Below are positions 3,679-23,140 of a stretch of DNA of 64,000 nt, in pieces. The notes below the pieces were generated by a model that saw nothing but the letters and a program-made list of their open reading frames with translations, ran no database searches and was not told the origin of the DNA. Each line of letters opens with the position of its first letter. Position 1 is the stretch's first letter. The stretch comes from Promethearchaeota archaeon (GTDB lineage: Archaea; Asgardarchaeota; Lokiarchaeia; Sigyniarchaeales; SOKP01), in assembly GCA_048938895.1 (NCBI GenBank), contig JBHLLU010000001.1, forward strand, positions 32,001 to 96,000. The letters run 5' to 3'. The translations under genes and the position numbers were made by a program.

Positions 3679-4440
3679 TTAAGTTCTTCTATGAATTATC
3701 GTTCTTATTCTTGTTACATCATCTATTGTTAAATTGCGTTTCATATTTTTTTGCTCAAATCGCATATACCCTTTATGATTAATTCCTTGGCATAGATATT
3801 TTTTTGAGTCATCAAGGATAACTTCTTTTCCAAAAATTTGAGAGTGTTCATTGTATTCTTGAATTAAGGTCTTTATCACCATTAAATTATTTTCTGTAAT
3901 TGGAGAATAATATTTATTTGCATAAAAGCATATTTTTTTAGCAAATTTATCAATAGAAACTGGCTTCTTTAGTACATCTTTTATAGATACTGACTTGGAA
4001 CTTAAGCCTTCTGGCATTTTTTTACTTGAATTATTTAAATTTACACCTATACCGATCAAAATATAATTTACTTGAGAGCTTACTATATAATCAATTAATA
4101 TTCCTGCGAGTTTTTTATTTTCATATAAGATATCATTTGGCCACTTAATTTGTGTTTTTAAATTATACTCATTTTCAATAACAAACCTTATTAATGTTGC
4201 AGTAAAAAAATGAAACAATGCTAATTGCGACTTACTCAAAGATGACGTTGATGCTCCAAGAGTAGCCCAAAAACCCCCTTCTGGAGAATACCAATCGTTC
4301 TGCTTTCTTCCACGACCCTTTGATTGTGTTTTTGCAATTAAAAGAAGAGATGAATAATAATCATATTTAAGGTAATCCATTATACTATCTTGGGTAGAAG
4401 TGGTTTGATTAATGTGGATGATCTTTATTTTTTGAAACAT
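3679..4440 (-). CDS. birA: Biotin--[acetyl-CoA carboxylase] ligase (no N-terminal HTH)
   Basis: QSKGRGR..W.SP, IKWPNDI, KKLAGIL, IGIGVN motifs; adjacent to carboxylase genes. Confidence 0.92.
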   Translation of the reverse strand: MFQKIKIIHINQTTSTQDSIMDYLKYDYYSSLLLIAKTQSKGRGRKQNDWYSPEGGFWATLGASTSSLSKSQLALFHFFTATLIRFVIENEYNLKTQIKWPNDILYENKKLAGILIDYIVSSQVNYILIGIGVNLNNSSKKMPEGLSSKSVSIKDVLKKPVSIDKFAKKICFYANKYYSPITENNLMVIKTLIQEYNEHSQIFGKEVILDDSKKYLCQGINHKGYMRFEQKNMKRNLTIDDVTRIRTIIHRRT

Positions 4441-4836: not shown

Positions 4837-6408
4837 ATGACATTGAAAGATGAGAAATCTAATGATAACTTTGAAATAGCAGAAAAGTTGCAAGAGCTTA
4901 GAAATGAGTCTAAGTTAGGGGGTGGAAAAGATAGAATTGATCTTCAACATAAAAAGGGCAAATTAACTGCCCGAGAAAGAATTGAATTGTTAATAGATTA
5001 CGGTTCGTTTAATGAAATTGACTCATTTGTTAAACATCAATCTAATAATTTTGATTTAGTAGATAAGAAATTTCTCGGGGATGGAGTAATTACCGGTTAT
5101 GGTACAATAGAAGGAAGAAAAGTTTTTATTTATAGTCAAGATTTTACTGTGTTAGGGGGAACCATAGGGAAAGCTCATGCTCAAAAAATATGTAAAGTTA
5201 TGAAATTTGCTCTAAAAATGGGTTGCCCAATTATCGGTTTAATAGATTCGGGAGGAGCACGTATACAAGAAGGAGTAAATGCTTTAGATGGATTAGCAGA
5301 AATTTTTTATCAAAATGTTAGAGCATCTGGGGTCATTCCTCAGATTTCTGTTATATTAGGCATTTCTGCTGGGGGAGCTGCTTATAGCCCCGCATTAACA
5401 GATTTTATAATTATGGGTGGAAAGAATACTTCTATGTTTATTACAGGACCCGAAGTGATAAACTCGGTAACTGGTGAAAATGTCACTTTTTCAGAATTAG
5501 GAGGTTCTAAAATTCATTCGTCTGTCTCTGGTGTGTGTCATAAGGCTCTAGACACTGAAGAGGAAGCAATAGAATTCACAAAAAAATTATTATCATATTT
5601 ACCCTCAAATAATTTAGATGATGTCCCTCATTGTTTAGAAGAAATTCAAGTAGATGATGCCTATTTATTGGATCGATTGGTGCCAGAGGATGAAAATGAA
5701 CCTTATGATATGAAAAAGGTAATAGATGTAATAGTAGATCAAAATTCTTTTTTAGAACTATATCCTGAGTGGGCAAAGAATATTGTAATTGGGTTTGGGA
5801 GAATAGAGAATCAAACTGTGGGTCTAATAGCAAATCAGCCTATGTTCCTTAGTGGTGCTCTAGACTACAATGCCTCAGATAAGGCTACAAGATTTATTAG
5901 GTTTTGTGATGCATTTAACATACCTCTCCTTACATTAGTAGATGTTCCGGGTTTTTTGCCAGGAGTGAAACAAGAATATTCTGGAATTATTAGGCATGGA
6001 GCTAAAATGCTTTTTGCATATTCGGAAGCAACGGTATTAAAAATCACTGTCATTATACGAAAGGCATATGGTGGAGCTTATATTGTGATGAGTTCAAAAC
6101 AATTAGGATCTGATGTTAATATAGCCTGGAAATCAGCTCAAATTGCTGTAATGGGTGCTGAGGGTGCGTGTAAGATTTTATTTCGTAATCATTTGAATGA
6201 AGTTGAAGATCCCGATATTCTATTAAAAGATTTTAGTGAGAAATATAAGAGAGAATTTTCAAATCCTTTCCGAGTCGCAGAAAGAGGACAAGTGGATAAG
6301 GTTATCTTTCCACATGAAACTCGAAATGAAATTATTAAAAGTCTGAAATTTTTTGAATCAAAACGGAAACTGCCTCCTCGAAGAAAACATGGGATTTCTC
6401 CAGTTTAA
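4837..6408 (+). CDS. Acyl-CoA (acetyl/propionyl-CoA) carboxylase carboxyltransferase subunit
   Basis: GKLTARERI, QDFTVLGG, DSGGARIQEG, VDVPGFLPG, RKAYGGAY; PccB/AccD family; 523 aa. Confidence 0.93.
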   Translation: MTLKDEKSNDNFEIAEKLQELRNESKLGGGKDRIDLQHKKGKLTARERIELLIDYGSFNEIDSFVKHQSNNFDLVDKKFLGDGVITGYGTIEGRKVFIYSQDFTVLGGTIGKAHAQKICKVMKFALKMGCPIIGLIDSGGARIQEGVNALDGLAEIFYQNVRASGVIPQISVILGISAGGAAYSPALTDFIIMGGKNTSMFITGPEVINSVTGENVTFSELGGSKIHSSVSGVCHKALDTEEEAIEFTKKLLSYLPSNNLDDVPHCLEEIQVDDAYLLDRLVPEDENEPYDMKKVIDVIVDQNSFLELYPEWAKNIVIGFGRIENQTVGLIANQPMFLSGALDYNASDKATRFIRFCDAFNIPLLTLVDVPGFLPGVKQEYSGIIRHGAKMLFAYSEATVLKITVIIRKAYGGAYIVMSSKQLGSDVNIAWKSAQIAVMGAEGACKILFRNHLNEVEDPDILLKDFSEKYKREFSNPFRVAERGQVDKVIFPHETRNEIIKSLKFFESKRKLPPRRKHGISPV

Positions 6409-6428: not shown

Positions 6429-9400
6429 ATGAAAAAGAAAGAAAACATCCAAAAAATTTTCAAAAACAAAATTCCTGTTTGGGGCTATTCACCTAAAGGA
6501 GTAACTGATCCCTCACTTTCAATTCAATTATGTCAAGCCGGGGGAATTGGATTAATTGATTTGGAAGGTCTTAATCAAGATCAATGTCAAAATCAAATTG
6601 ATAAACTTTTTTCATCTTTGACTTCCGATCATTTATGGGGTATTCGAATTTCTAATCACAACCTTTTAAATACCCTCAACTTTCGAGATGTTATCCCGAT
6701 TATCGTTTGTGCTTTCTCCCCAAATAAAGATGATATTCAAAGTATGCAAAAAAATTCAAAATTACTTCTTTCTGAAGTCTCATACTTAGAAGAAGCTTAT
6801 GAAACTGCAGAATGGTCAGATTTGTTTCTTGTAAAGGGTCACGAGGCGGGAGGGATTGTTGGCACTAAGAATAGTTTTATACTTATTCAAGAATTTCAGA
6901 AAGCTGGCCTTTCCTTCATTATTCAAGGTGGTTTTGGAGTTTATAATGTATGTTCAGCTTTTATTGGGGGTGCTATAGGTGTTGTATTAGAAAGCCAGTT
7001 ATATTTACTCCCTGAATGCCCGTTGAGTCCAGATTTTAAGAATTACATTAAAACTATTGATGAAAATGATTTCTATATTGTGCAAGAAACGTCTCGATAT
7101 AATTACCGTTTAATTGGTAAATTAGCTAATAAATCAATCCGTACAATAAAGAGTTTTGAACAAAAAAACTATTCAAACGTAAATAATGATTTCGATACTA
7201 ATTACTTAACTCGTAAAGATGATTTTCATCAAGTAATTAAGAAGTTTATAGATAAATTTCCTCTTTATTCTGATTCAGATCCAAAGCATTCATTCTTACC
7301 AAGCGATCATGGTATATGTTTTGCTAATTTCATTTTGACTAAATTTCAGAATTTAGAGAATTTCCTTACGAATATAATTAATATTATTACTAATCAAATT
7401 AAAAATTGTATAAACAATTGGCCATTTACCAAGAATTCTGAGTTTGCGACAAAGTTAGGCATAAAATATCCAATTATTCAGGGACCAATGGCAAATATTT
7501 CTGATAATTTGTCTTTTGCGAGAAAAATATCAAATAATGGAGCCCTCCCTATTTTAGCGCTAGGAGGACTATTACCGGACGAAACATCTGAGCTGTTATC
7601 AAACTGTAATGCTGAAAAATTATCAGAGAATCCATATGGTTGTGGTATCATAGGTTTAGATGCCGTGAAACCTCGTAGAGATGAACATCTTAGATGTATT
7701 TCAAAATTTGGTCCTGAAATTATCTTAATTGCTGCGGGTACAATTGATCTTGGCGTTCAGGTTAAAAATTCAGGTAATATAGTTTTAATCCATACACCTG
7801 CATTATCTATGTTTAAAGAGGCATTAAAAAGAAATCTTAATTACATGATATTAGAAGGTAATGAGTGTGGGGGGCATGTTGGAACACTTTCCTCTTTCAC
7901 TCTCTGGGAACATGTTTTAGAATATATGGATATAGAACGAAAGAATTTTATACAGAAAGTAAATATAATTTTTGCAGGGGGGATAATTAATGGGGTAAGT
8001 TCAGCAATGCTAGCAGGAATGATATCTAATCATTTAGATATAATCACTCCAGGTATCCAGATGGGAACTGCTTATCTTTTAAGTGAAGAAATTGTTACAA
8101 CTAAGGCATTATCCCCTGTTTATCAAGAATTACTTTTAAATAATACATTTACAAATGTTATTGGTGTTACTGTAAATACTCGAGCTAGAGTAATCCCTTC
8201 GGAATTTTCGCTTTATACTATTAAAAATGAGTATTTACGTAAATCAAATGGAATTTCTTTATCCCAAAGAAAGAAATTGTATGAAGAAGACAATTTAGGT
8301 GCTCTTAGAATTGCTTCTAGAGCTGAGATTTGGAACGAGAATCATGAAAAAGTGAGTGGGACGTCTCAATTTATACCGATCTCAACTGAAGAACAATTAA
8401 CCAAAGGTGTTTTTATGACAGGTGATTCAATTTCCCTGCAAAAAACAATTAGAAGTATCCCTCAAATTCATTCTGATATAATTGAAGAAGGTTTGAAATT
8501 TATCAGAAAAAACTCAAATTATATTTTAAAAGAGACGTTAGGTCGTGTGCCTATGAATAAAGAAAAATACTTAAAAAAAATACAATCTATCGGAAATAAA
8601 ATAGCTATTGTAGGAATGGGTGGTTTGTTTCCAGATGCCGAAAACATTCCACAATTTTGGGACAACATCATTAGCAAAAAATATTCAATTACGACAGTCC
8701 CAAAAGATAGATGGGATTCTGATATATTTTATGATAGTGATCATTCCATTCCTGATAAAACATATACAAAGATCGGTGGATTTGTGAAAAAATTTGAATT
8801 TAAATCTATTAAGTATAGAATTCCTCCTAAAATGGCGGATAGGATGGATTTAGTTCAGAAGTGGGCAATAATTACTGCAGAAGAAGCTTTAATTGATGCT
8901 GGTTATCCTATTGATGGGAAAAAACGATTATCTATAGCTACTATTGTTGGTAACTCTTCAGGAGGAGATACGCAGCGTATTAGCAACAAACGGATATTAT
9001 TTAACGAAATTAAATATAGATTAAATGAAGCAAGTTCCCAAATGATTTTAAAACCTGAAGAAAAAGAAAATCTTCTTAAATTCCTCGAAAGTAAAATTAT
9101 TAATCATATTCCTGTGATTAATGAGGATACGATGCCTGGTGAATTGGCAAACATAATTGCAGGAAGAGTAGCAAACGTGTTTAATTTAACTGGTAAGAGC
9201 ATGACTACTGATGCTGCATGTGCTTCAAGTTTAGCTGCGATTGACACAGCAGTAAACGGATTATTAGTCAAGGATTATGATACAGTTCTTGTAGGAGGGG
9301 TTGATAGTTCGATGGACCCTCAAACATATATTAAATTCTGTAAGATAGGTGCCTTGTCTGAAGATGGTACTTATCCTTTTGATTCTCGTGCAAATGGATT

Positions 9401-12400
9401 TGTCATGGGCGAGGGTGCAGGATTTATAGTTTTAAAGCGACTTGAAGATGCTTTACATGATAAGAATAAAATCTATGCGATTATTAGTGGATTTGGAGGG
9501 TCTTCAGATGGAAAAGGAAAAGGTATAACTGCACCTAATCCTGAGGGACAAAGATTAGCTATTGAGAGAACCCTGGAAAATACTAATTTAAGCCCTTCAG
9601 ACATTCAATACCTTGAGTGCCATGGAACATCAACTATTGTTGGTGATGCCACCGAATTAAGTGTATTAAGCCAAATTTTTTCTGATCGAAATGTAAATCA
9701 AAAACTTGCATTAGGCTCAATAAAAAGTCAAATAGGGCATCTTAAAAGTGCAGCAGGTATAGCTAGTATTATTAAAACGGTATTAGCGTTATATAATAAA
9801 ATCATACCTCCATCCATTAACGTTTCAAATTTAAATCCCACAATAAATTGGGAAAATGCTCCTTATTATGTGAATACGGAACCAACTAAATGGTCAACAC
9901 CTGAAAATGGAATAAGAAGAGCAGGAGTTTCCTCATTTGGATTTGGAGGTACAAATTATCATGTAATCTTAGAAGAATTTTTACCACATCTATACACAAA
10001 TGTCTTAACTGAAAGAGCTGAGGATTTTCCGTTATGTGAAGAATTAATGTATAAACAATTTGAATCTCATCAAGACAATTCTATTATTCCTTCTTCCACT
10101 GATCTATGTTTTTTATTTAGTGGTCAAGGAAGCCAATATGTTGGGATGACTCGAGAGTTATATGAAAAATATCAAGTGGTTAAAAATACACTTAATAAAG
10201 CAAATGATATATGTAAAGAGTTTGGTAGTTTTAATTTATTAAAAATCATTTTTGGGGATAATAATTTATCTCAAGAAGAAAACTCAGATAAGTTAAAACA
10301 GACAGAATTTACTCAACCAGCTATCTATTCAGTTGAGATGGCTTTAGTTAATCTATTTAAATCAAAAGGGATTACCCCAGGGATTGTTGGAGGGCATAGT
10401 TTAGGAGAATTCGCAGCTTTAGTCACAGCAGGAGTATTAAGTTTTGAGGATGGATTGAAAACAGTAATTAGAAGAGGAATTTCAATGTCTGAATTACCTC
10501 CTGGTGTTCAATGCACCATGGCAGCGATATTTACATCACCAGATATAGTTGAGAAAACCCTTAATGAGTTATCTAATGAAGATGTCTCCATTTCAAATTA
10601 TAACTCTACTTCTCAGACGGTTATATCTGGTGAAATTTCTGCAGTCGAATCTATTATGGATGCATTTTCAAAGAAAGAAATTCGAGCAATAAGATTAAAT
10701 GTTTCGAATGCATTTCATTCTAAGTATGTAGCCCACGCTGAGGAAAAATTAAAAGACTTTTTAAAAACAATTGAATTTAAATCCCCTCAAATTCCAGTCT
10801 TTAGTAACGTGACGGGAAAGGTATATCCTAATGATCCTGATAAGATAAAATCAATCTTACTTAAACAGATAACCTCTCCCGTTAGATGGGTTGACGAAGT
10901 ATTAAATATGTATCAAAAAGGAGGAAGAAAATTCTTAGAATTAGGACCAAAAAAAGCTCTTTTCTTTTTTACCAAAGATATCTTGAAAAAGTATAAAGAT
11001 ATTGAGGTTAATTTTACTCTTTCACCAAAATCTTCAGAGAAAGATCATATTCAAAAAGTTTTTGATAGGTTCTCAGCTTTAGAATCAATCAGTCAAAAAG
11101 AAAGAGTTGAAATTGAGTATCCTTCCATTAAAGATAAGAAAATAAAAATATCGAGACAAGCAGAATCATCCATTATAAAGAGAGATACTTTAAGATCGAA
11201 TGAATATTTATCTAAAATTGTGCAACTTCCATCATTTAAGGATTTTCTAGAAGAACAAAAGGTTTCTCTATCTTCTGCTTTGATGGAAGGATTTTATAAA
11301 TATCTTGAGAAGAATAGTACTTCTATTGATAATCAATTTAATAAGGGTGATATAGATTCTACTCCCATTGTAATCACGGGTGTAGGTATTGGGCTTCCTG
11401 GCAAAAATCGTAAAGTTTTTGATGATAAAAATGTAGATGATATTTTAGATGGAATAAACTTAATCGATTTGGTAAGTACAGAATCTCAAAATCAATTGCT
11501 CCAAAAAAAAATCATACGTTTGGAAAAATCTCCGAATGGTAATGCAAAATTTGTTTCTGTAGATGACATTTCTAATGTAATTCACCTAGCAGGACAACTT
11601 GGAGAATTCAATCCCAATGAAGATTACCATCTAAATCCTAAGTTGTTGAATGCCTTAGATATCACATTTCAAATGGCAATCTGTGCAGGATACGATGCAC
11701 TTAAGGATTCAGGTATTCCATTAGTCCGCAGTACCATTAAAACTTCAACAGGAAAGACTTTGAGTGGAGATTGGATATTACCAGAATCATTACAGGATGA
11801 CACTGGCATAATTTTTGCATCCGCTTTCCCAGGATACGATAATTTTGTTGAAGAATTCCGGAAATATTCTAATTTTGATTGTGATCAGAAAAAGTCTATT
11901 GAAGAAAATGATAAAAATTTTAATCGTTCATTTTTGTTCAGAGTGTTATCTATGGGGCATTCTCAGTTTGCTCAATTAATAAAAGCAAAAGGTCCAAATA
12001 CCTCTACGAATGCTGCATGTGCCTCTACTCCTCAAGCTATAGGTATTGCTGAAGATTGGATACGCAATGGAAGATGTAAACGAGTCATTGTGATTACAGC
12101 AGACAATGTAACAAGTCGTAACCTTTTTCAATGGATAGGTGCAGGTTTTATTGCTAGCGGAGCCGCTACAACTAAAAATCGATGGGAAGATGCTGTACTT
12201 CCATTTGGAGAAGGAAGGAATGGAATTATTTTAGGTGCTGGTGCTAGTGCATTCGTAATCGAACAGCAGATGGAAGCTGAAGCTCGAGGTGTTAAACCAA
12301 TTGTTGAAATATTAGGTTCATATTTCGCAAATAGTGCCTTTCATGGTACCCGATTAGATAAAGATCATATTTCTCAAAAACTCGAAGAATTTATACAAAA

Positions 12401-15400
12401 GATTGAGAGAACATATGATATTACTAGAGAAGAATTGGCAAAGGAAGGAATGTTTGTGAGTCATGAAACTTACTCTCCAGCCCGAGGAGGAAGTGCTGAA
12501 TCGGAATTGATTGCTTTAAGAAACACGTTTGGAAATTATGCTCAAGATATGGTTATTATCAACACGAAAGGATATACTGGTCATGCAATGGGGGCTGGAA
12601 TTGAAGAAGCTGTCGCTATCAAGTCACTTGAAAAAGGGAAAATCCCACCAATAGCAAATTTGAATAGAATTGACCCAAATTATTCAAATTTCAACTTTTC
12701 AGCTGGAATAAATGAAAGGAAGAAATATGCTTTACGTTTTGCTGCAGGATTTGGATCTCAATTAGCAATTGTTCTATTTCGTCTAAAGTCATTCAATAAC
12801 CGTTTTGCAAATCCAAATTACCAAAAATGGCTTCAAAGCATAGGTGGAGACGAAAAATTAATATTTATCGATGGAAGACTTCTAAAAATGAAAACTGAAC
12901 GTGTTCCCCTCAAAAAAGCTACTATCTTTTCTACAGAAACAACTGAAAGTTCCCAGAAAGTAATTCCTTCTGGAACAAGTGAAATTCTGAATGAGATCAA
13001 ATACATAATTAGTTTAAAAACTGGGTATGATCCAGCTGATATTGATGATACATTCGATTTAGAGGAAGATCTAGGAATTGATACTGTAAAACAGGCAGAA
13101 ATATTTGGTGAAATTAAAAAAAAATGGGATATTGAAGTGGATGATTCATTTAATTTAGCAGATTATCGCACAATTAATGAAATTGTCCAAATGTTGAATG
13201 ATTTCTTAAGGGTAGATCTTATAACTGAAAATGATTTTTCTTGTCTCAATGAATTTTCGCTTGAAAAAGAATTAATAAATATAATTTCTGAAAAGACAGG
13301 ATATGATATTGAAGACATCGACATTGAATTTGATTTAGAGGAGGATCTTGGGATTGATACAGTAAAACAAGCTGAGATATTTGGGGCGCTTCGGAGTAAT
13401 TTGAACATCCCAGAGGACACTGAAATCAATCTATTAGGATTAGGAAGTATTAAAAATATAATTCAAAAAATACAAGTATTAATGAGTGACAAGATTATTG
13501 ATGGAAAATTAACTCAAAATATCTATACTCCTATTGAAGTACCTGATGACATAAAACAAATAAATAATTTAGTAAAAAAAATTATTGCAGAAAAAACAGG
13601 GTATGACCTTAATGACATTGATGACTTATATGACTTAGAGGAAGACTTGGGAATTGATACAGTGAAACAGGCCGAAATCTTCGGAGAATTACGTAATCAT
13701 TACAAACTAGAAGATTCCATTGAGATTAACATATCTGAAATTCGCACTCCAAATGATATTACTCAATTTATAATGCAATATTTCAATGAGAAATCCAAAA
13801 TCGTTGAAAAAGACTTAGGAACGACTGGAAGCGTAGATAAAGTTCAAGAAGAGATAAAAGAGGAAAAACAAGATAGTATTTATGTTTCACAAGTTGTCCC
13901 CTCTCAAATTTTTAAATTAGAAACCCCAGAAATAGATTTGAAATATAAAAGTACGGATACTTTACTCCTTAATATTAATTTAGGGTTATCAAATTACGGA
14001 AAATTGATAAAAAGTTTTGAAAACTATGGCTTAAAAATTCAAGTATTAAATGTTAATAGTGATGAAAATTTTTCTAGTGATCTTAACAATAAAAAACATG
14101 ATTCTCTATTCAATACTGATTTTAAAATACTTCTATTGGTCACTCCAGATAATAATCAATACACTATAGATGATAGTTTAAGCATCTTTGATAATCTATT
14201 CCTTATTTTTCAATCATTAAATTTATCAATAATCGAAAGAATATTAGTGCTTTCTCCAGAAACTACTTTTGGTTGGGAAGAAGGAGCCAATCCTCTTTCT
14301 GCTAGTATAAGTGCCTTTATAAAAACAATAAATCGCGAATTTAAAATTCCGATTAAACTAATTTCTTCAAAGAATCTAAGTAAAATTTCTCAGGAGTTTC
14401 TTACTTGGGATACTGTTGAAGAAGTTTCCTATGTAGATAATTTTCGTTATACATTATTAAGACAGAAAATTGAGGTACTCCCAGAACAGAATCCTTTATC
14501 AATAACGGAAGAAGATGTATTATTGGTCACTGGAGGTGCACAAGGAATCACTTTTGCATGCATCGATGAATTAACAAACTATACTAAACCACAGTTAATT
14601 CTTATGGGACTAGCTTCTTACGAAAATTCATTGAACGAATATTTAAATTATACTCCAGAAATGTTGAATGAGAAAAAGCTAGAATTGGTTAACAAGTTGA
14701 AATCTGAACATAAAAGAGTAACTCCTGTCATGATAAATAAAGAATGGAAAAATTTTCTCGACAAACTAGATACTCTAAGAAATATTGAAAAATTGAGAAG
14801 TAAAGGTCTTAAAGTGCAATATTTTGCGGGGGATATTACCGATGATGAATTTGTAAGCACTACACTCCAAAAAAGTTATAAACAAAATAAAAATCCAATA
14901 ACAATTGTTATCCATGGAGCTGGAATTGAAGAATCAAAAAATTTCTTAAATAAAAAATTAAATGTGGCTCATAAAGTTGTTGATGTCAAAGTTGGAGGAT
15001 TTTCAAATATTCTGAAGCATATAAAGCTTCAAGATGTTAAATATTTCATAGCCTTCTGTTCAGTTGCAGGTCGTTATGGAAATCAAGGACAAATAGATTA
15101 TGCTTTTGCAAATTCTTATTTATCTCGGTTAGCTTGGAAATTCAATCAAGATAAAATTCCTTTTCTTATTTTTGATTGGACTGCTTGGGCTGACATTGGA
15201 ATGGCAACTCAGGGTTCGACTCTTCAAATTCTTACTCAAGCAGGTGTTAGGCCTGTCCCATCCAAAACTGGTGTTAAAATATTTACAAAGTTAGTACTAA
15301 ATAATTTTACTGGTGAATACGTCATTGCTGGAGAATTAGGAATATTTGAGGAGAAGCTTCGTATAGAGGAGGTTATTAGCAAGTTAGAATATCCTATGTT

Positions 15401-16973
15401 AGAGAGAATTAATTATCAGTCAGCTCGTATTATTGGATACAACACAATTGATTCTAAATTCGATGTATATCTTCTAGATCACCAAATTCAACGGAAACCA
15501 GTATTTCCAGGAGTAATGGTTTTAGAAACATTTGCAGAATTTTATCATCGAATGTTTGATAAACCATTAACCTCAATCTCTAATGTAAATTTTCTTACGC
15601 CCTTGAAAATCCCAATAGATAAAACTATTAATATAGAACTAATTTTTAATAAATCTAATAACGAAATTTCTTTCCAATCAAAGACTTTTCCCACTATCTT
15701 GAAAGGAAAACCTCTTGTTAAAGAACGTTTCAATGCTAAGTTCAATGAACCTACAAATGAGCTGAAGTGGAAAAAAGAATCTATTTCGGAGCCGTTAATA
15801 TCACTACTCGAGAAAACCGAAATTTATGAGCTTTTCTTTCATGGACCAAAATTTCAGGTTTTAAAAGAAGTTATTCAATTAGAAAAAGAAAAAATTGTTA
15901 CGATGGTTGACTTACCTACAGCCCCTCTTATTAATAATAAGGAGGATCAATTTCAAATTAAACCTTTGATACTTGAAAGTGTTTTTCAAACCGCTGCACT
16001 TTTTGATTTTATAATTAATGGTTATCTTTCACTTCCCTCTAAAATTTCAATCTTGAAAATATTATCAAATCAAAAGCCTAAATATATAGTCGCTAAATTT
16101 TTAAAGAGGGATGATGAGAAATCTTATTACAATTCAGTAGTGCTAAGTGAAGATCAAGAAATAATAGTAATAATGGAAAATTTAGAAATTATCCATGCAC
16201 CAATGGCAAAAAATATCTCTCCTAATCTATCTAATTATTTAGGTACATTAAAGGAGTATTATCACCTTAAAAATAACATAAATAAGCATGAGATTCATGT
16301 CCTTCCTATCACAAAGATACATAATTTATATCAAACCAATCCTAAATTTTTGGATTATTACCTTACTGAACAAGAAATAGATAACTCCAAGCGTTTTAGA
16401 AATTTAAAAAGAAAAATCGAATATTTTTCTGGAATCATCGCAGCAAAAGAATTGTATTTTAGAAATTCGTACAAGCGTGAGTCTTATCACGATATTGAAA
16501 TTCAAAAAGATGATAAAGGTAAACCATTTTATTTTTCAAATAAATTGAATCAAATTATTCCGCTTAATCTTTCAATTAGTCATTCAAACGAATTTTCAGT
16601 TGCAATTAATGGTAAAAATTTGGTTGGTATTGATCTAGAGATAATTGAATTCCGATCATCTTCATTTTACAAAGAGGTATTTACTGAATTAGAGAGAAAT
16701 GCTATTTCAGAAGATAATCAATTAGGAACAATTTACTGGACAGCTAAAGAAGCCTTCTCAAAAGCAATAGGGGAGGGTTTTAATATTAATTTTAAAGATT
16801 TTGAATTGAAATACGAGGAAAAGCACAAAAAATTCACAATATCATTCAAAAATGAAAAATCTGAATTCAATGATAATCTTAGATCTTTACAATTGGGAGT
16901 TGATTATACCAAGAAGTATGTTTTATCATATTGCGAGTTGAAACCATTTAAAGAAATTCCAACAATCCAGTGA
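6429..16973 (+). CDS. Giant type I iterative PKS/FAS (Pfa-like): 2x FMN TIM-barrel ER-like, KS, AT, second KS, 3x ACP, KR, DH, PPTase
   Basis: ER/NMO-like motifs KGHEAGG, IIQGPMA, EGNECGGH, AGGI. KS1 DAACASS/ECHGTST/IGHLKSAAG (~8600-9980). AT FSGQG/GHSLG/AFHS (~10100-11030). KS2 NAACAST/SHET/TGHAMG (~11360-12790). Three DLGIDTVKQAE ACP repeats (~12980-13790). KR TGGAQGI/GQIDYAFAN. DH LLDHQIQRKPVFPG/FHGPKFQ. PPTase SISHS/VGIDLE/WTAKEAFSKA. Confidence 0.93.
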   Translation: MKKKENIQKIFKNKIPVWGYSPKGVTDPSLSIQLCQAGGIGLIDLEGLNQDQCQNQIDKLFSSLTSDHLWGIRISNHNLLNTLNFRDVIPIIVCAFSPNKDDIQSMQKNSKLLLSEVSYLEEAYETAEWSDLFLVKGHEAGGIVGTKNSFILIQEFQKAGLSFIIQGGFGVYNVCSAFIGGAIGVVLESQLYLLPECPLSPDFKNYIKTIDENDFYIVQETSRYNYRLIGKLANKSIRTIKSFEQKNYSNVNNDFDTNYLTRKDDFHQVIKKFIDKFPLYSDSDPKHSFLPSDHGICFANFILTKFQNLENFLTNIINIITNQIKNCINNWPFTKNSEFATKLGIKYPIIQGPMANISDNLSFARKISNNGALPILALGGLLPDETSELLSNCNAEKLSENPYGCGIIGLDAVKPRRDEHLRCISKFGPEIILIAAGTIDLGVQVKNSGNIVLIHTPALSMFKEALKRNLNYMILEGNECGGHVGTLSSFTLWEHVLEYMDIERKNFIQKVNIIFAGGIINGVSSAMLAGMISNHLDIITPGIQMGTAYLLSEEIVTTKALSPVYQELLLNNTFTNVIGVTVNTRARVIPSEFSLYTIKNEYLRKSNGISLSQRKKLYEEDNLGALRIASRAEIWNENHEKVSGTSQFIPISTEEQLTKGVFMTGDSISLQKTIRSIPQIHSDIIEEGLKFIRKNSNYILKETLGRVPMNKEKYLKKIQSIGNKIAIVGMGGLFPDAENIPQFWDNIISKKYSITTVPKDRWDSDIFYDSDHSIPDKTYTKIGGFVKKFEFKSIKYRIPPKMADRMDLVQKWAIITAEEALIDAGYPIDGKKRLSIATIVGNSSGGDTQRISNKRILFNEIKYRLNEASSQMILKPEEKENLLKFLESKIINHIPVINEDTMPGELANIIAGRVANVFNLTGKSMTTDAACASSLAAIDTAVNGLLVKDYDTVLVGGVDSSMDPQTYIKFCKIGALSEDGTYPFDSRANGFVMGEGAGFIVLKRLEDALHDKNKIYAIISGFGGSSDGKGKGITAPNPEGQRLAIERTLENTNLSPSDIQYLECHGTSTIVGDATELSVLSQIFSDRNVNQKLALGSIKSQIGHLKSAAGIASIIKTVLALYNKIIPPSINVSNLNPTINWENAPYYVNTEPTKWSTPENGIRRAGVSSFGFGGTNYHVILEEFLPHLYTNVLTERAEDFPLCEELMYKQFESHQDNSIIPSSTDLCFLFSGQGSQYVGMTRELYEKYQVVKNTLNKANDICKEFGSFNLLKIIFGDNNLSQEENSDKLKQTEFTQPAIYSVEMALVNLFKSKGITPGIVGGHSLGEFAALVTAGVLSFEDGLKTVIRRGISMSELPPGVQCTMAAIFTSPDIVEKTLNELSNEDVSISNYNSTSQTVISGEISAVESIMDAFSKKEIRAIRLNVSNAFHSKYVAHAEEKLKDFLKTIEFKSPQIPVFSNVTGKVYPNDPDKIKSILLKQITSPVRWVDEVLNMYQKGGRKFLELGPKKALFFFTKDILKKYKDIEVNFTLSPKSSEKDHIQKVFDRFSALESISQKERVEIEYPSIKDKKIKISRQAESSIIKRDTLRSNEYLSKIVQLPSFKDFLEEQKVSLSSALMEGFYKYLEKNSTSIDNQFNKGDIDSTPIVITGVGIGLPGKNRKVFDDKNVDDILDGINLIDLVSTESQNQLLQKKIIRLEKSPNGNAKFVSVDDISNVIHLAGQLGEFNPNEDYHLNPKLLNALDITFQMAICAGYDALKDSGIPLVRSTIKTSTGKTLSGDWILPESLQDDTGIIFASAFPGYDNFVEEFRKYSNFDCDQKKSIEENDKNFNRSFLFRVLSMGHSQFAQLIKAKGPNTSTNAACASTPQAIGIAEDWIRNGRCKRVIVITADNVTSRNLFQWIGAGFIASGAATTKNRWEDAVLPFGEGRNGIILGAGASAFVIEQQMEAEARGVKPIVEILGSYFANSAFHGTRLDKDHISQKLEEFIQKIERTYDITREELAKEGMFVSHETYSPARGGSAESELIALRNTFGNYAQDMVIINTKGYTGHAMGAGIEEAVAIKSLEKGKIPPIANLNRIDPNYSNFNFSAGINERKKYALRFAAGFGSQLAIVLFRLKSFNNRFANPNYQKWLQSIGGDEKLIFIDGRLLKMKTERVPLKKATIFSTETTESSQKVIPSGTSEILNEIKYIISLKTGYDPADIDDTFDLEEDLGIDTVKQAEIFGEIKKKWDIEVDDSFNLADYRTINEIVQMLNDFLRVDLITENDFSCLNEFSLEKELINIISEKTGYDIEDIDIEFDLEEDLGIDTVKQAEIFGALRSNLNIPEDTEINLLGLGSIKNIIQKIQVLMSDKIIDGKLTQNIYTPIEVPDDIKQINNLVKKIIAEKTGYDLNDIDDLYDLEEDLGIDTVKQAEIFGELRNHYKLEDSIEINISEIRTPNDITQFIMQYFNEKSKIVEKDLGTTGSVDKVQEEIKEEKQDSIYVSQVVPSQIFKLETPEIDLKYKSTDTLLLNINLGLSNYGKLIKSFENYGLKIQVLNVNSDENFSSDLNNKKHDSLFNTDFKILLLVTPDNNQYTIDDSLSIFDNLFLIFQSLNLSIIERILVLSPETTFGWEEGANPLSASISAFIKTINREFKIPIKLISSKNLSKISQEFLTWDTVEEVSYVDNFRYTLLRQKIEVLPEQNPLSITEEDVLLVTGGAQGITFACIDELTNYTKPQLILMGLASYENSLNEYLNYTPEMLNEKKLELVNKLKSEHKRVTPVMINKEWKNFLDKLDTLRNIEKLRSKGLKVQYFAGDITDDEFVSTTLQKSYKQNKNPITIVIHGAGIEESKNFLNKKLNVAHKVVDVKVGGFSNILKHIKLQDVKYFIAFCSVAGRYGNQGQIDYAFANSYLSRLAWKFNQDKIPFLIFDWTAWADIGMATQGSTLQILTQAGVRPVPSKTGVKIFTKLVLNNFTGEYVIAGELGIFEEKLRIEEVISKLEYPMLERINYQSARIIGYNTIDSKFDVYLLDHQIQRKPVFPGVMVLETFAEFYHRMFDKPLTSISNVNFLTPLKIPIDKTINIELIFNKSNNEISFQSKTFPTILKGKPLVKERFNAKFNEPTNELKWKKESISEPLISLLEKTEIYELFFHGPKFQVLKEVIQLEKEKIVTMVDLPTAPLINNKEDQFQIKPLILESVFQTAALFDFIINGYLSLPSKISILKILSNQKPKYIVAKFLKRDDEKSYYNSVVLSEDQEIIVIMENLEIIHAPMAKNISPNLSNYLGTLKEYYHLKNNINKHEIHVLPITKIHNLYQTNPKFLDYYLTEQEIDNSKRFRNLKRKIEYFSGIIAAKELYFRNSYKRESYHDIEIQKDDKGKPFYFSNKLNQIIPLNLSISHSNEFSVAINGKNLVGIDLEIIEFRSSSFYKEVFTELERNAISEDNQLGTIYWTAKEAFSKAIGEGFNINFKDFELKYEEKHKKFTISFKNEKSEFNDNLRSLQLGVDYTKKYVLSYCELKPFKEIPTIQ
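12980..13790 (+). repeat. Three tandem ACP-domain repeats inside the PKS
   Basis: Repeated I(S/A)xKTGYD...DLEEDLGIDTVKQAEIFG units spaced about 276 and 300 nt apart, diverged at synonymous sites. Confidence 0.9.
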
Positions 16974-17761
16974 TAGTAATGAGAAAAGAAGTGATTGAAG
17001 TAGAAGTTCGATCTGAAATTCTGCAAGGAGTACTCTATTTACCTGATGAAAAAGATCCAAAAATTAGTGAATGTAATCCATTTCCAATCGTGATTCGTGT
17101 TAATGGAATGCCTGGTAAATCTCCCGAAGAAGATGAAACGAGATTTGCCCATCTTTTTGTTAACAATGAATTTGCTTATTTCACTTATGATCACCAAGGT
17201 GTGAGGAAAAGTACCGGTATTTTTACTTATTATGACGCTCAAGCAAATATCGAAAATGTAATAAATCAGTTAGTGCATCATCCTGAGATGAATCCTATTA
17301 AAATTGGCCTGTTAGGAGAAAGTTTTGGGGGTGCAATGGCTTTTTGCCATACTGTAAGAGATAAACGTGTTAAATGTCTTGCTATACGTTCTCCTGTTTT
17401 TGATACAGAAATTATTCCAAAGAATCCTCTTTTTAAATTTTTCATCAAAGCATTAACACGTAATAAAAAAATGCGATTTCCCGAAGGAGATCTCAAAAAA
17501 AAGTATGCTGAACAAACAAGACAATATAATCCCAATAGATTAGCGGATAAATTAGCAAAACCTTTCTATCTGATTGCAGGAAATAAGGATGTTTTATTTC
17601 CAGAATCTGGTTTTCATCAACTCTTTAATAAAGTCAAGTCTGAAAATAAAAAAATTGAAATAATTGATGGAGCTGATCATAACTTTACAGATAAAAATCA
17701 TTTTCACCTAATGCGTAAAAATATTATTGATTTCTTTAGATTTCATCTTATAGTAAATTAA
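16970..17761 (+). CDS. Alpha/beta-hydrolase, probable thioesterase/release enzyme for the PKS
   Basis: Nucleophile elbow GESFGG, acid GNKD, His in GADHNF. Start overlaps or abuts the PKS stop (GTGA; alternative ATG at 16979). Confidence 0.8.
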   Translation: MIVMRKEVIEVEVRSEILQGVLYLPDEKDPKISECNPFPIVIRVNGMPGKSPEEDETRFAHLFVNNEFAYFTYDHQGVRKSTGIFTYYDAQANIENVINQLVHHPEMNPIKIGLLGESFGGAMAFCHTVRDKRVKCLAIRSPVFDTEIIPKNPLFKFFIKALTRNKKMRFPEGDLKKKYAEQTRQYNPNRLADKLAKPFYLIAGNKDVLFPESGFHQLFNKVKSENKKIEIIDGADHNFTDKNHFHLMRKNIIDFFRFHLIVN

Positions 17762-17773: not shown

Positions 17774-18271
17774 ATGCCGAAAAAAGTTAAATTTCGAGGA
17801 AGGAATTATATAGTTACTCCATTAGATAATGGGAAAATAAAAGTAGATGACCATATTTATGCCCCGGTAGTCATTCAAGAAACAGAGAATTTATTTCGAG
17901 TAACATTTGAAGATTGTCAGTTTAATTTGGAATTTATAAACGGGGTTTTATATTTAGAGGGTGAAGAAATCGATATTGAAATTAAACCATATTTAAAATC
18001 AGTAGATAATAACTATGAAAGCCCACAAATCACGGACGTAATTATAAAAGCTCCTATTCCAGGGAAAATATTAGAAATCCACGTCGAAGAGGAGGAATAT
18101 ATCGAAAAGGAACAGTTATTATTAATTTTAGAAGCAATGAAAATGAAAAATCGAATATTGTCTCCAAGAAAAGGGAAGATAATCCAAATATTAGTGAATG
18201 AAGGGGATATCGTTGGACAAGATCAAAAGTTAATTAAAATTGAAAGTAGAAATAATGTAAAGGGTATATAA
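17774..18271 (+). CDS. accB: Biotin carboxyl carrier protein
   Basis: IKAPIPG and EAMKM biotinylation motif. Confidence 0.9.
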   Translation: MPKKVKFRGRNYIVTPLDNGKIKVDDHIYAPVVIQETENLFRVTFEDCQFNLEFINGVLYLEGEEIDIEIKPYLKSVDNNYESPQITDVIIKAPIPGKILEIHVEEEEYIEKEQLLLILEAMKMKNRILSPRKGKIIQILVNEGDIVGQDQKLIKIESRNNVKGI

Positions 18272-18292: not shown

Positions 18293-19774
18293 TTAACGTA
18301 TTTGCTCTATTTTAGCGACATCTCGCCATTTATTTGATTTTTTCTTTTGTGTTTCTTCAGGTTGAGTTGATAATTTAAATTGCTTAAATAATTGAAAAAC
18401 TGCTGCCAATTTTTTTCTTTCTAAATCTTTTAAATTATTAGCAATGTTTGTTTTATTTAAGAAATCAGTTGATAAATCTCCCTTTCTAAATTCACGAGAA
18501 TCTACTATTACTTTATGTAAATCTAAATTCGTTTTTATTCCTGAAATAACTAATTCTTTTAGGGTATGTTTAGAGAGATTGATTGCCCTTTTTCGATTTC
18601 TACCCCACACCACCAATTTCCCTATCAATGAGTCAAAATCATGAGGAACTACATAATTAGGGTACAAATAACTATCAAAACGCACTTTTGGTCCCCCTGG
18701 TATGATTAAATTTGTAATTTTTCCATGTTGGGGAAAGAATGAATTATATGGATCTTCAGCATTTATCCTATATTCTATAGCATGTCCATGTAATGAGATT
18801 TCCTCTTGAATATAATTTAATGGTTTATTTGAGGCAATGCTTATTTGTTCCTCAACCAAATCTATTCCTGTTACCATTTCTGTAACAACATGTTCTACTT
18901 GGATTCTTGGATTTACTTCATTAAAATAGATATTACCCTCCTTCCATAGAAATTCTGCTGTTCCCACATTTGAATAATTTAATTCACGAGCTAACTGACA
19001 AGTTTTATCTCCTAATTTAGAGATTTCATCCCTTGTTAAAAATGAGGGTGCTTCCTCAATAAGTTTTTGATGAGATCGTTGGATAGTACATTCCCGATCT
19101 CCTAAATATATAATATTACCAAAATTATCTCCAATAAATTGAATTTCTACATGACGAGGTGCCATAATAGACTTTTCAATAAAAACTTCATTGCGACCAA
19201 AAAACTTTGATCCCATTTCTTGACAACCTTGGAGTGCAATGCCCATTTCTTCTTCAGATTCAACAATTTCCATTCCTCGACCACCACCTCCAAAGGCTGC
19301 TTTTATTATTACAGGATATCCGATCTTATCTGCTATTAATTTAGCTTCCTCTAAACTACGAATAAATCCATCTGAACCAGGTAAAACGGGTAAACCGACA
19401 CTTTTTGCTAGGATTTTTGCTTTAATTTTATTACCTAAAAATTCAATGGTATTTGGGCTTGGACCGATAAAAATCTTACCAAGATTAATAATTTGTTTTG
19501 CAAATTCTGCATTTTCGCTCAAAAAACCATATCCTGGATGGATTGCATCTGCATCACACCGTTTAATTATTTCAACTAGTTTTGAGATGTTAAGATATGT
19601 ACCCTGAATTGATTCATCTCCTAAATTATATGCCTCATCTGCCATTTTTACGTGAAGAGAGTTTTTGTCTGACTCAGAAAAAATTGCTATTGATTTAATC
19701 TCTTTTGATCGACATGCTCTGATAACTCTAACTGCAATCTCTCCACGATTAGCAATTAAGACAGATTTGATCAT
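18293..19774 (-). CDS. accC: Biotin carboxylase (ATP-grasp)
   Basis: LIANRGEIA, HPGYGFLSENA, KAAFGGGGRG, RECTIQR, EVNPRIQVEH, RINAED; start placed at ATG 19774. Confidence 0.93.
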   Translation of the reverse strand: MIKSVLIANRGEIAVRVIRACRSKEIKSIAIFSESDKNSLHVKMADEAYNLGDESIQGTYLNISKLVEIIKRCDADAIHPGYGFLSENAEFAKQIINLGKIFIGPSPNTIEFLGNKIKAKILAKSVGLPVLPGSDGFIRSLEEAKLIADKIGYPVIIKAAFGGGGRGMEIVESEEEMGIALQGCQEMGSKFFGRNEVFIEKSIMAPRHVEIQFIGDNFGNIIYLGDRECTIQRSHQKLIEEAPSFLTRDEISKLGDKTCQLARELNYSNVGTAEFLWKEGNIYFNEVNPRIQVEHVVTEMVTGIDLVEEQISIASNKPLNYIQEEISLHGHAIEYRINAEDPYNSFFPQHGKITNLIIPGGPKVRFDSYLYPNYVVPHDFDSLIGKLVVWGRNRKRAINLSKHTLKELVISGIKTNLDLHKVIVDSREFRKGDLSTDFLNKTNIANNLKDLERKKLAAVFQLFKQFKLSTQPEETQKKKSNKWRDVAKIEQIR

Positions 19775-20026
19775 ACAACACAATAATGAAAGCTAATTAT
19801 TATAGCTATGCTATTAATTAAATAAACAAGTATTTTATTAAAAAATATCATTTTTTTTAATATTTGAGGAAACGATTTTAACGATTTTAAATTTTAAGTT
19901 ATTTTCTATGGGAGGATCTTTAACATCAGAAGAAATATTATCTGAAATCAGAATCCTTAAAGGTCCCTCATTCTGGTAAAAAGGAATTAATTACTCATCT
20001 GATTAAATATATAATTTAGAACAGTT

Positions 20027-21244: not shown

Positions 21245-23140
21245 TTACTCTTCTAATTGTTCAATTTCTAAGATGAAAAGATTCGCAATGGTAATCCATT
21301 TCTGTTTTGTTTCCGTATCTAGAGAACTTTTTTCTATTAACTTCATCCCTTCTGTAAGGTACTCGACTGTTCGTTCTAGATCTTTAAGTTCTTTATAACA
21401 AATTCCAAGTTTAATATAGGTTTGAGGAATATACCATTCCTCACTTGCTAATTCTATTGCTGTTAAAAATTCTTCTATAGCATTTTCATACTCTTCAAAA
21501 TACATCAGGATTTCTCCATAAGTATCATGATACATCCCGTTATTGGGAAAGGTCTCTACAAGTTTCGAAATTATGGCAAGGGATTCATCCTTTCTATCCA
21601 AATATTGGAGCCAATAAGCTTTATAACTGATAAGGTCATTCTTTTTTGGATATTTTTCTATTAATTCATCAATAATTTCTAATCCTGCATTTATCTCCTG
21701 CATTCTTCTCAAAACAGATGCCTTTTTCATCCCAATATCAAGTTCTTCTTCTGGGAAAATTTCTAACATTTCATCTAATAGGCTTAAGACCTCATCGAAT
21801 TGATTATAATAGATCAAAATTCTAATTTTTGAATGATATAAGTCAAGATTCTCAGGATCGGATTTAATTTGTTTATCGATTTTCCTAATCTCTTCTATGT
21901 AGTCTTCCTGTAAATCTTCAATAGTTTTAGTTTGAAAAATATCTATCATATCCTGCCAAATAATTCCTTCTAATTTATCATAAGTCTCTTTTAATTCTAC
22001 TTTTGCTTCAATCTTATACGCTAAATAGTTAATGTACTGAGGTAAGAATTTGCGTAATGACTCCTTTAAGTCCTCATGGAACAATAAGCTACAAATATCT
22101 TCTAATATTTCATTTATAGTATTTCTTATATTAAGTGGTCTCGAAAACAATTTATTCAAATAGGTAAATTTAGTGATATAATCTTCTGTTATAGCTCTTA
22201 ACATTATTTCCAGTCTTTCACCCTCCTGAAAATAATAAATCAAATCTCCTGATGAAATTTTGAAAAATTTAATTGGAAAAATTTGATTTTCAATGATCTC
22301 GTCTATATAATAATTTAATTTCGATTCTTTAATTTTAAAAGTTCTTGAAAAGTCTTCTGGAGAGATATAATCAGGATACTGACTTGGATGGTTAATTGAG
22401 ACAAAGAGTAAAATCTTATCGAAATCCTCTTCATTCGTTAGCATTGATTCAACTCTAGTATAATCTAATTTTAACATATTATTTAAAAAGCGAAATTGTA
22501 CATCCTCATCTGAAATATCATATCGTTCGAAAAATTTGATAGTTTTTATAGTTATCTCTTCAATTCTCTTGCTTTCTTCTTCCAATATCGATTGCTTATC
22601 CAAGTCATAATTTTCTAACATCCTAGAATATTCTAATTTACCCGAACGGGTAATTCTGTATTTCTTTTCCTCTTTCTCTATAATTCCTTTATCAAGTAAC
22701 AAATTTATATTCTTAGATAAAGAGGATTGATTTATAGAAAGTGGTTCTGCCAAGAAATCAGCCCATTTGCAATAATTATTATTATAAACCATCCAAAGAA
22801 TCCAATGATCATAATTTCTTCTTCTTTTAATTATTGTAGGAGGATAGCTTAAGGATCTTTTTTTCCCTTTCGATTGAGAAAGTTCAAGATACCTCTTTCT
22901 GCCCTCTGAAGTAATTTTATAATGACCTCTAGAAATATTTTCTACATGACCCCTTCCCTTTAAAAGAGAGAGATATTTTGATAATGTTGATAATCTAAGC
23001 TCAAGTGGTTCTTGAGTGAAATCGGCCCACTCGCATTCATCATTGTTATACACCATCCATAGAATGATATGCTCAAAATTTTTTTTCTCTATTACTGGAG
23101 GTTTATAAATCTCCTTAGGAGGATAATTTACTTTGCTCAT
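21245..23140 (-). CDS. Tandem winged-HTH + C-terminal TPR protein (putative transcription regulator), copy 1
   Basis: Two internal repeats YPP..H.ILWMVYNN..C.WADF..PL.....LSK.L.LL..KG......Y.IT..G+ (wHTH-like). C-terminal TPR-like helices (YHDTYGEILM, YIKLGICY). Confidence 0.8.
   Translation of the reverse strand: MSKVNYPPKEIYKPPVIEKKNFEHIILWMVYNNDECEWADFTQEPLELRLSTLSKYLSLLKGRGHVENISRGHYKITSEGRKRYLELSQSKGKKRSLSYPPTIIKRRRNYDHWILWMVYNNNYCKWADFLAEPLSINQSSLSKNINLLLDKGIIEKEEKKYRITRSGKLEYSRMLENYDLDKQSILEEESKRIEEITIKTIKFFERYDISDEDVQFRFLNNMLKLDYTRVESMLTNEEDFDKILLFVSINHPSQYPDYISPEDFSRTFKIKESKLNYYIDEIIENQIFPIKFFKISSGDLIYYFQEGERLEIMLRAITEDYITKFTYLNKLFSRPLNIRNTINEILEDICSLLFHEDLKESLRKFLPQYINYLAYKIEAKVELKETYDKLEGIIWQDMIDIFQTKTIEDLQEDYIEEIRKIDKQIKSDPENLDLYHSKIRILIYYNQFDEVLSLLDEMLEIFPEEELDIGMKKASVLRRMQEINAGLEIIDELIEKYPKKNDLISYKAYWLQYLDRKDESLAIISKLVETFPNNGMYHDTYGEILMYFEEYENAIEEFLTAIELASEEWYIPQTYIKLGICYKELKDLERTVEYLTEGMKLIEKSSLDTETKQKWITIANLFILEIEQLEE

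Follow-up and report, generated by a model that had tools for sequence, protein, structure and literature searches.

The window analysed here is a stretch of 64,000 nucleotides from the genome of a Promethearchaeota archaeon (Asgardarchaeota; Lokiarchaeia; Sigyniarchaeales; SOKP01), namely positions 32,001 to 96,000 of the forward strand of contig JBHLLU010000001.1 in assembly GCA_048938895.1; coordinates below count from the start of the window. It encodes a PfaA-like iterative megasynthase that contains three acyl carrier protein (ACP) domains and ends in a 4'-phosphopantetheinyl transferase (PPTase) domain of its own. In each of the three ACPs, the serine that normally accepts the 4'-phosphopantetheine (Ppant) arm is replaced by threonine. 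We propose, with a probability of roughly 0.75, that this Thr is a real Ppant attachment site, a reading that comes from comparative evidence. An earlier note on this DNA, made from the sequence alone, had asked whether such domains are Thr-linked carriers or have a non-carrier role and had favoured the former. The computational tests agree with that preference: the Thr is conserved, Ser substitutes for it only at the canonical site, no other carrier or PPTase is found in the genome, and a distinct PPTase subfamily co-occurs with the Thr motif. The best explanation is that the three domains are true carriers, belonging to a PfaA-like synthase that works iteratively, reduces fully and is self-contained.

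The presence of Thr at the Ser position of all three ACPs is confirmed. The Ppant serine of ACPs sits at the first residue of helix II; in 3/3 ACP domains of the synthase, the canonical (D/H)S serine at the helix II N-terminus is a Thr. The same peptide, DLGIDTVKQAEIF, is encoded by all three motifs (DNA 13068-13106, 13344-13382 and 13644-13682). The 39-nt copies differ only synonymously, copy 1 from copy 2 in six codons and from copy 3 in seven, which rules out a single sequencing error as well as recent copying of one from another. The whole protein scores 54 bits against the PP-binding family PF00550 (cut-off 20.8), and the three domains, at 29.3, 25.7 and 23.1 bits, each score above the cut-off. 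When the domains are aligned with HMMER to the solved ACPs PigH, T. maritima, A. aeolicus, E. coli and AcpM, the Thr occupies the column of the D-S serine. In an AlphaFold2 model of ACP2 (mean pLDDT 91.6), helices span residues 2-14, 35-49 and 65-77, and Thr35 opens helix II; the best PDB matches that Foldseek finds for this model are all ACPs, with TM scores of 0.75-0.85 and rmsd of 1.5-2.0 Å. The DNA, the alignments and the model thus bear out what the earlier note had read from the codons ACT, ACA and ACA, including its point that a single sequencing error is not the cause, since the copies differ at synonymous sites.

The earlier note had suggested a search for ACPs of the GIDTVKQ type. 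When this was run, Thr proved almost invariant across a large family. A search with the ACP region retrieved 3614 proteins at E ≤ 1e-3 among 7999 scored candidates, and the best 120 of these, the window protein included, were inspected: 613 of their 615 ACP motifs have Thr and two have Ser. Such a search could favour the query's own motif, and the sampling was therefore repeated with the KS2 region alone, which is blind to the ACPs; that sample (118 of 120 proteins with an ACP motif) gave 331 Thr, 8 Ser and one doubtful regular-expression match. Species-representative genomes were also searched with the peptide pattern LE[AE]DLG[IV]DT. At least 619 stretches matched, at least 599 were confirmed, and 77 loci were kept. 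The pattern selects at least one Thr motif per locus and leaves the remaining motifs unconstrained; Thr is found in 257 of the 259 motifs at these loci. Its codons (ACC 111, ACG 106, ACT 21, ACA 19) track GC content, and the two Ser codons are AGC and TCC.

The background is very different. With the position left free, a regular expression applied to 149 unrelated large type I polyketide synthases (PKSs) gave 456 matches, with 454 Ser, 0 Thr, 1 Ala and 1 Gln. This count is larger but cruder than extraction with hidden Markov models (HMMs), which yielded 45 background ACP domains with 43 Ser and 0 Thr and, in a second run, 36 domains with 35 Ser and 0 Thr. The 149 PKSs came from a search with the KS-AT region, in which giant modular PKSs filled the 150 best rows through their summed KS-AT copies; since P0009 was the only clear family member among those rows, that search was unusable for setting the family boundary.

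Among the matches listed, the carriers of the Thr motif belong to Asgard archaea, Thermoplasmatota, Acidobacteriota, Chloroflexota, Myxococcota, Actinomycetota, Calditrichota and Desulfoluna, and the closest homologues bear Asgard names (Promethearchaeota, Hodarchaeota, Thorarchaeota, Lokiarchaeum). Tandem arrays of two to eight ACPs are maintained in the family. The Thr trait is a property of a large family spanning archaea and bacteria; the earlier note was right about the window gene, but the trait is not special to it.

At the few positions where Thr is not found, Ser generally takes its place. In a clade of Thermoplasmatota, the first ACP has Ser in six of ten proteins and Thr in four of ten, and the later ACPs of those six all have Thr. 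Arrays of the type Ser-Thr-Ser occur in two single-contig Asgard genomes (G074 and G026) and in two database proteins (P0287 and P0298), and the G074 synthase gene has the same gene order and neighbours as the window gene. A Heimdall-type protein of the same architecture, PPTase included, has four ACPs, all with Ser (P0335). A search with the Ser-bearing first ACP of one protein (P0115) retrieved nine proteins, all from one Thermoplasmatota clade, so that there appears to be no large Ser sister group of the DSVKQ type at these protein lengths. No Ala was found at the site in the Thr family, either among the 615 motifs or in the KS2-picked sample of 331 Thr and 8 Ser. The site is thus held as a hydroxyl residue, with Thr strongly preferred, though one base change yields Ser. 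The residues that follow co-vary with it, DT-V-K-Q in the Thr type versus DS-I-K-R in Ser-type relatives, a hint of adaptation in the immediate neighbourhood. A Ser-type Pfa-like synthase from Chloroflexota (a 2061-aa open reading frame, ORF, at locus L114 of G162:C2) has one ACP, LEADLGVDAIKRVEII, with Ala at the site (aa 1425), and the adjoining gene has Ser in its ACP; from its sequence, the Ala-site domain looks like a dead ACP.

The earlier note had seen no other ACP in the cluster, and this extends to the whole genome. A scan of the window genome (4.65 Mb, 98.7% complete) found that the three Thr-ACPs are its only PP-binding matches above threshold and that the PPTase domain fused to the synthase is its sole ACPS match. 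It follows that the fused PPTase is left without any other possible substrate. A weak fourth PP-binding match (L004, E 0.6) is a 227-aa ORF without ACP features and was rejected as an ACP. In two further genomes, G003 and G109, the Thr-ACPs are likewise the sole PP-binding matches and the fused PPTase the sole ACPS match. Across the 151 Asgard genomes sampled, 117 have no PP-binding match, and PPTases are found either inside ORFs of at least 1000 aa beside Thr-type arrays or as small AcpS-like ORFs beside small Ser-ACPs, whose motifs include WDSM and DLGIDSL.

The small cassettes occur in other Asgard families (L105, L107, L108, L112; for example G055:C28 90904-93371), each pairing a stand-alone AcpS-like PPTase (ORFs of roughly 150-240 aa) with a small ACP, 2-3 kb away, whose Ser motif reads ..WDSM.HL.. 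By their motifs, they appear to be a second, Ser-type carrier system in the Asgard phylum. An 87-aa PP-binding-like ORF on the minus strand of G080:C189 (L103, 1483-1743) reads DLNLDKDGL, with Lys, and hence no hydroxyl, at the site; similar 87-aa matches are found in the same genus (G045, G115).

The PPTase of the window protein has intact catalytic motifs. Its best PDB relatives are AcpS and Sfp, and its N-terminal lobe aligns to AcpS structures at E 3e-10; against PF22624 it scores 19.3, under the cut-off of 27. The H, D.E and KEA..K residues are invariant in a 26-sequence family alignment (A2) and present in the window protein. A family HMM was built from 31 fused PPTase domains. At the 77 loci kept, a family PPTase is found at 56, where it is fused to the synthase (14), within 600 bp on the same strand (24), within 10 kb on the same strand (17) or on the opposite strand (1); 15 loci end too early to judge, and one has no motif. 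At five loci no PPTase is found although at least 9 kb of sequence follows downstream; each of these genomes encodes a family PPTase at another place (E 2e-34 to 1e-69). Fusion is seen in 93 of 219 family proteins. The fusion noted earlier in the window holds there, but it is only one of three arrangements, the others being an adjacent gene and a gene a few kilobases downstream.

Co-occurrence of the Thr motif and the PPTase, which the earlier note had proposed as a check, is seen in Chloroflexota. Six of 151 genomes contain the exact Thr-motif DNA pattern, and none contains a reversed control pattern. These same six genomes, and 0 of the 145 others, supply the six top-scoring hits of the PPTase profile (119.8-208.6 bits); omitting one negative genome that is flagged as unpublished (G193) leaves 6/6 versus 0/144. 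Next in rank, at 105.9 and 98.5 bits, come two PPTases fused to synthases with Ser-ACPs of the form LEADLG[VI]DSIKR[VI]EI, and all the remaining genomes score about 80 bits or less. Together with the linkage at 56 of 77 loci, this suggests that a distinct PPTase subfamily travels with Thr-type ACPs.

Several observations weigh against a Thr-linked arm. As a nucleophile, a secondary alcohol is inferior to a primary one. E. coli ACP with a Ser36-to-Thr change (S36T) could not be modified with 4'-Ppant and was non-functional, as reported in the passages of PMC3340395 that describe it, and the same variant figures in a passage of PMC13343975; at least AcpS, in that context, does not accept Thr. 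No conserved PPTase residue separates the 8 Ser-bearing from the 85 Thr-only synthases, so the PPTase sequence offers no explanation of how Thr would be accepted. A linked PPTase is also usual in Ser-type Pfa clusters (pfaE), according to a passage of PMC3098273, which means that linkage alone is not specific. Finally, four genomes of the same genus (G008, G049, G132 and G150; 94-99% complete, 3.5-3.6 Mb) have no PPTase or PP-binding match, so the cluster is dispensable, and only two of 25 same-family genomes have a PPTase. The window genome (G000) is about 1.1 Mb larger than the same-genus genomes, and its contamination is rated at 7.5%. Within the lineage, then, the cluster has a patchy distribution: it was gained recently, is lost often, or lies on a contig binned from another Asgard genome.

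Several rival explanations were weighed. One is that the Thr-ACPs are unmodified pseudo-carriers with a structural or docking role, in a synthase that is inactive or works on CoA-bound substrates. ACP-independent fatty-acid synthesis has been proposed for archaea, which generally lack ACPs, as do most of the Asgard genomes searched. The unmodifiable E. coli S36T variant (PMC3340395, in the passages cited) fits such a role as well. We nevertheless regard this explanation as unlikely, and it fails chiefly because an intact PPTase that has no other substrate in the window genome is retained, fused or adjacent, and because the site invariably has a hydroxyl residue (Thr or, occasionally, Ser) and in neither sample an Ala, whereas the Chloroflexota Ser-type relative described above does show an Ala variant. 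The maintenance of tandem arrays of two to eight such domains also speaks against it.

A second possibility is that the Thr carries a non-standard group, either another CoA-derived arm or a direct O-acyl link. The distinctness of the PPTase subfamily and the co-variation of the residues after the site would suit this view. It is very unlikely, since the PPTase retains H, D.E and KEA..K, as CoA-using PPTases do, and mixed Ser/Thr arrays within one protein served by one PPTase argue for equal chemistry on both residues. Ketosynthase chemistry, moreover, needs a thioester on a long arm.

Still less weight is given to the idea that Ppant sits on a different residue of these domains, or that the true carrier is a separate Ser-ACP encoded elsewhere. 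The domain does have other conserved hydroxyls, namely Thr at -16 (97%, in KTGY), the Tyr of KTGY and Thr at +34 (94%), counted from the D of DLGID, and the two Thr positions could be put forward as acceptors. In the ACP2 model, however, KTGY and the +34 Thr are both at a distance from the point where helix II begins. In the alignment of the 615 ACP domains, no column other than the acceptor site has Ser above 25%, and Ser substitutes only at the canonical site. As to a separate carrier, the one non-ACP ORF mentioned above is the only further PP-binding match in the window genome at E ≤ 1. Attachment elsewhere is highly improbable because there is neither an alternative conserved Ser nor another ACP in the genome. 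That the Thr is an artefact, whether introduced in sequencing or assembly or owed to a variant code in which ACN means Ser, is refuted by three independent codons in copies that differ at synonymous sites and by hundreds of independent assemblies from many phyla with the same residue in all four ACN codons.

We return to Thr as the Ppant acceptor. In the proposed mechanism, the Thr that opens helix II would stand in for the canonical Ser as acceptor, and the protein's own C-terminal Sfp-type PPTase domain would transfer the prosthetic group to it from CoA. The flanking biotin-dependent carboxylase would provide malonyl-CoA, its carboxyl carrier being biotinylated by the product of the neighbouring ligase gene. 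The acyltransferase (AT) would load malonyl onto the Ppant-Thr-ACPs, the two ketosynthase domains (KS and KS2), the ketoreductase (KR), the dehydratase (DH) and the enoyl reductase (ER) would extend and reduce the chain, and the adjoining alpha/beta-hydrolase would probably release it. We infer that the product is a fatty-acyl-type chain.

Why Thr should be used is a matter for guesses. Its phosphodiester may be more resistant to hydrolysis or to beta-elimination; greater resistance to the latter is expected from general phosphoester chemistry. Alternatively, Thr may insulate the carrier from Ser-specific PPTases and ACP phosphodiesterases. It is tempting to go further and suggest, tentatively and with the odds against it, that O-(4'-phosphopantetheinyl)-threonine occurs naturally and widely as a post-translational modification, and that Thr-ACPs and their dedicated PPTases are insulated chemically and enzymatically from the Ser-specific housekeeping machinery. 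AcpS-type transferases would then be unable to charge Thr-ACPs, and neither ACP phosphodiesterases nor beta-elimination would strip the arm. Such insulation would be the reason that Thr is held, despite a one-nucleotide path to Ser, across archaea and many bacterial phyla.

The features of the locus are given in Table 1. The synthase is a single open frame whose best NCBIfam match is TIGR02813 (PfaA), at 882.5 bits and under the curated cut-off of 1010.1. By Pfam, the KS-AT-tandem ACP-KR order of PfaA is present, with an extra ER, KS2, DH and PPTase. The earlier note had judged the KS, AT, KR and DH motifs intact; catalytic motifs were indeed located in all four, as well as in the PPTase. KS2 occupies the position of the Pfa chain-length factor (CLF) and retains an active-site Cys (NAACAST, 12009-12029, aa 1861-1867) and a GH motif. 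Judging by these motifs, KS2 may be catalytically active as a second ketosynthase, unlike the classical CLF, which lacks the Cys.

Table 1. Features of the synthase locus, in window coordinates, with the corresponding ORFs of a second Asgard genome in the last row (aa, amino acid residues).
Feature	Position	Strand	Matches and motifs
Biotin/lipoate protein ligase gene	3679..4440	-	PF03099, E 2e-18
Acyl-CoA (acetyl-CoA) carboxylase, carboxyltransferase subunit	4837..6408	+	PF01039, E 4e-179, 596.6 bits
PfaA-like iterative megasynthase, 3514 aa (ER (NMO-like), KS, AT, KS2, three ACPs, KR, DH, PPTase)	6429..16973	+	Single open frame, Pfam order
Nitronate-monooxygenase-like (NMO-like; FabK/PfaD-type) enoyl reductase region, N-terminal	6429..8528	+	PF03060 in three stretches; TIGR03151 FabK-like, aa 338-693
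Ketosynthase 1	8595..9824	+	PF00109, PF02801; Cys in DAACASS 9210-9230
Ketosynthase 1 His motifs	9615-9629; 9735-9758	+	ECHGT; GHLKSAAG
Acyltransferase, malonyl-CoA:ACP transacylase type	10110..11012	+	PF00698, E 2e-44; TIGR00128 FabD-like; GHSLGE 10392-10409
Second ketosynthase-like domain (KS2)	11346..12878	+	Second PF00109/PF02801 stretch; PF08545 at aa 1861-1895
ACP domain 1	12966..13214	+	PF00550; Thr2219, codon ACT 13083-13085
ACP domain 2	13242..13478	+	PF00550; Thr2311, codon ACA 13359-13361
ACP domain 3	13542..13784	+	PF00550; Thr2411, codon ACA 13659-13661; aligned to PigH ACP2
Ketoreductase domain	14520..15194	+	PF08659, E 3e-26; VTGGAQGIT 14526-14552; Y..AN 15093-15119
PKS-type dehydratase domain	15438..16190	+	PF21089, PF14765; His in LLDHQIQRKPVFPG 15471-15512
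Two-lobed Sfp-type PPTase domain, C-terminal	16266..16970	+	PF01648, 60.7 bits (cut-off 25)
PPTase domain motifs	16572-16589; 16623-16649; 16737-16763	+	SISHS; GIDLE; WTAKEAFSK
Alpha/beta-hydrolase (candidate thioesterase)	16970..17761	+	PF12146, PF01738, other hydrolase-fold families
Biotin carboxyl carrier protein	17774..18271	+	PF00364, E 1e-15
Biotin carboxylase subunit	18293..19783	-	PF02786, PF00289, PF02785
ORFs of locus L113 (genome G074, own coordinates)	937-1680; 1794-3368; 3390-13937; 13973-14734; 14756-15238	first ORF minus	Matched by size, order and strand only

A full biotin-dependent carboxylase set (carboxyltransferase, carrier and biotin carboxylase) surrounds the synthase between 3679 and 19783, together with the biotin ligase and the alpha/beta-hydrolase, so that the locus encodes its own presumptive supply of malonyl-CoA. 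The carboxyltransferase is presumed to be the supplier, and the hydrolase is a candidate for the thioesterase that would release the chain. The locus looks like a self-sufficient fatty-acyl-type pathway in an archaeon without any other ACP. Locus L113 of the single-contig Asgard genome G074 has similar-sized ORFs in the order and on the strands seen in the window; a 247-aa minus-strand ORF takes the place of the biotin ligase and a 253-aa ORF on the same strand that of the hydrolase, both matched by size and position. Further along the window lies a gene for a Ras/Roc-family small GTPase (23967-24521, plus strand; PF00071, E 2e-41). Such genes are typical of Asgard archaeal genomes. Two large minus-strand ORFs (21245-23140 and 24534-27068) have winged-helix DNA-binding matches and tetratricopeptide (TPR) repeats, mostly weak and under the Pfam cut-offs.

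The phosphopantetheine serine is treated as invariant in the enzymology of fatty acids, polyketides and non-ribosomal peptides. Rules that demand it exist in the form of motif patterns and 'inactive ACP' flags, and if our proposal is true these would misjudge Thr-type synthases. It would also mean a new protein modification and PPTases that accept a secondary alcohol. Changing this Ser to Thr is a standard route to a dead ACP, as in the passages cited from PMC3340395. The family is widespread, with at least 599 confirmed stretches in species-representative genomes and 3614 protein clusters matching the ACP region, the best 120 of them inspected. Cultured carriers among the matches listed (Desulfoluna butyratoxydans, Roseiflexus, and Oscillochloris and Chloroploca candidates) make the question directly testable, and a Thr-specific ACP/PPTase pair could, if real, become an orthogonal tagging or pathway-insulation tool. 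As the only carrier-protein system of the window genome, the synthase with its own PPTase and complete carboxylase bears on the question whether, and by what route, such archaea synthesise fatty-acyl chains.

The synthase family is already known as a gene-cluster type, and a description of its Thr acceptor site was not found in the open-access full-text literature (subscription journals and unopened supplements fall outside this scope). The string DTVKQ occurs there in three papers, all unrelated, and the threonine near the site in passages of PMC11744666 and PMC12391972 is the residue after the Ser (DST motif), not the acceptor.

Among known systems, the PfaA-type synthases of polyunsaturated fatty acids and secondary lipids (TIGR02813) are close in design. 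They likewise place KS-AT-(ACP)n-KR-DH on one polypeptide with tandem ACP arrays, and they share the ACP signature ...KTGY...LE(A/E)DLG(I/V)D-x-(I/V)K..E.. with the window family. Unlike them, the window synthase has Thr at the site, followed by V-K-Q rather than I-K-R, and its single chain also includes the ER, the second KS and the PPTase. The enediyne PKSs (PKSE) are relatives of these polyunsaturated fatty acid synthases and iterative KS-AT-ACP-KR-DH-PPTase enzymes in which the C-terminal PPTase modifies its own ACP; they have a single Ser ACP, no ER and no second KS, a likeness of general organisation rather than of compared sequence. With E. coli AcpP and AcpS, the window protein shares the ACP fold, the D-x motif at the start of helix II and a PPTase first lobe that aligns to AcpS. 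In E. coli the Ser36-to-Thr change kills AcpP function (PMC3340395, passages as above), whereas Thr is the conserved natural state in the window family. The Sfp-type PPTases (B. subtilis Sfp, PDB 1QR0/4MRT; human AASDHPPT) share the two AcpS-like lobes and the SxSHS, GxDxE and W..KEA..K motifs. The window PPTase, unlike these, matches Sfp weakly (E 1e-3) and belongs to a subfamily of its own that co-occurs with Thr-ACPs and is often fused to the synthase.

Another close layout is that of the Type R secondary-lipid synthase clusters of Shulse and Allen (2011), described in passages of PMC3098273 as KS-MAT-CLF-ACP(3-6)-KR followed by a PPTase gene, present in Acidobacteria, Elusimicrobia and Roseiflexus, and of unknown product. 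The word 'threonine' is absent from that paper. Relatives found in the present searches include a Roseiflexus protein with Thr-ACPs (P0370, 47% identity in KS2) and a Korobacteraceae locus (L009). From architecture and taxa, with the two set side by side rather than placed on a tree, we infer that the Thr family is Type R. As far as the published outline goes, the Type R order is matched by the KS-AT-KS2-ACP3-KR of the window protein, the name CLF applying to KS2 by position only, as KS2 has its Cys. The downstream PPTase of Type R is fused in the window protein; among the 77 family loci, it is adjacent in 24, the commonest arrangement, and fused in 14. The archaeal form differs from the Type R outline in having an extra N-terminal ER and in carrying its PPTase on the same chain.

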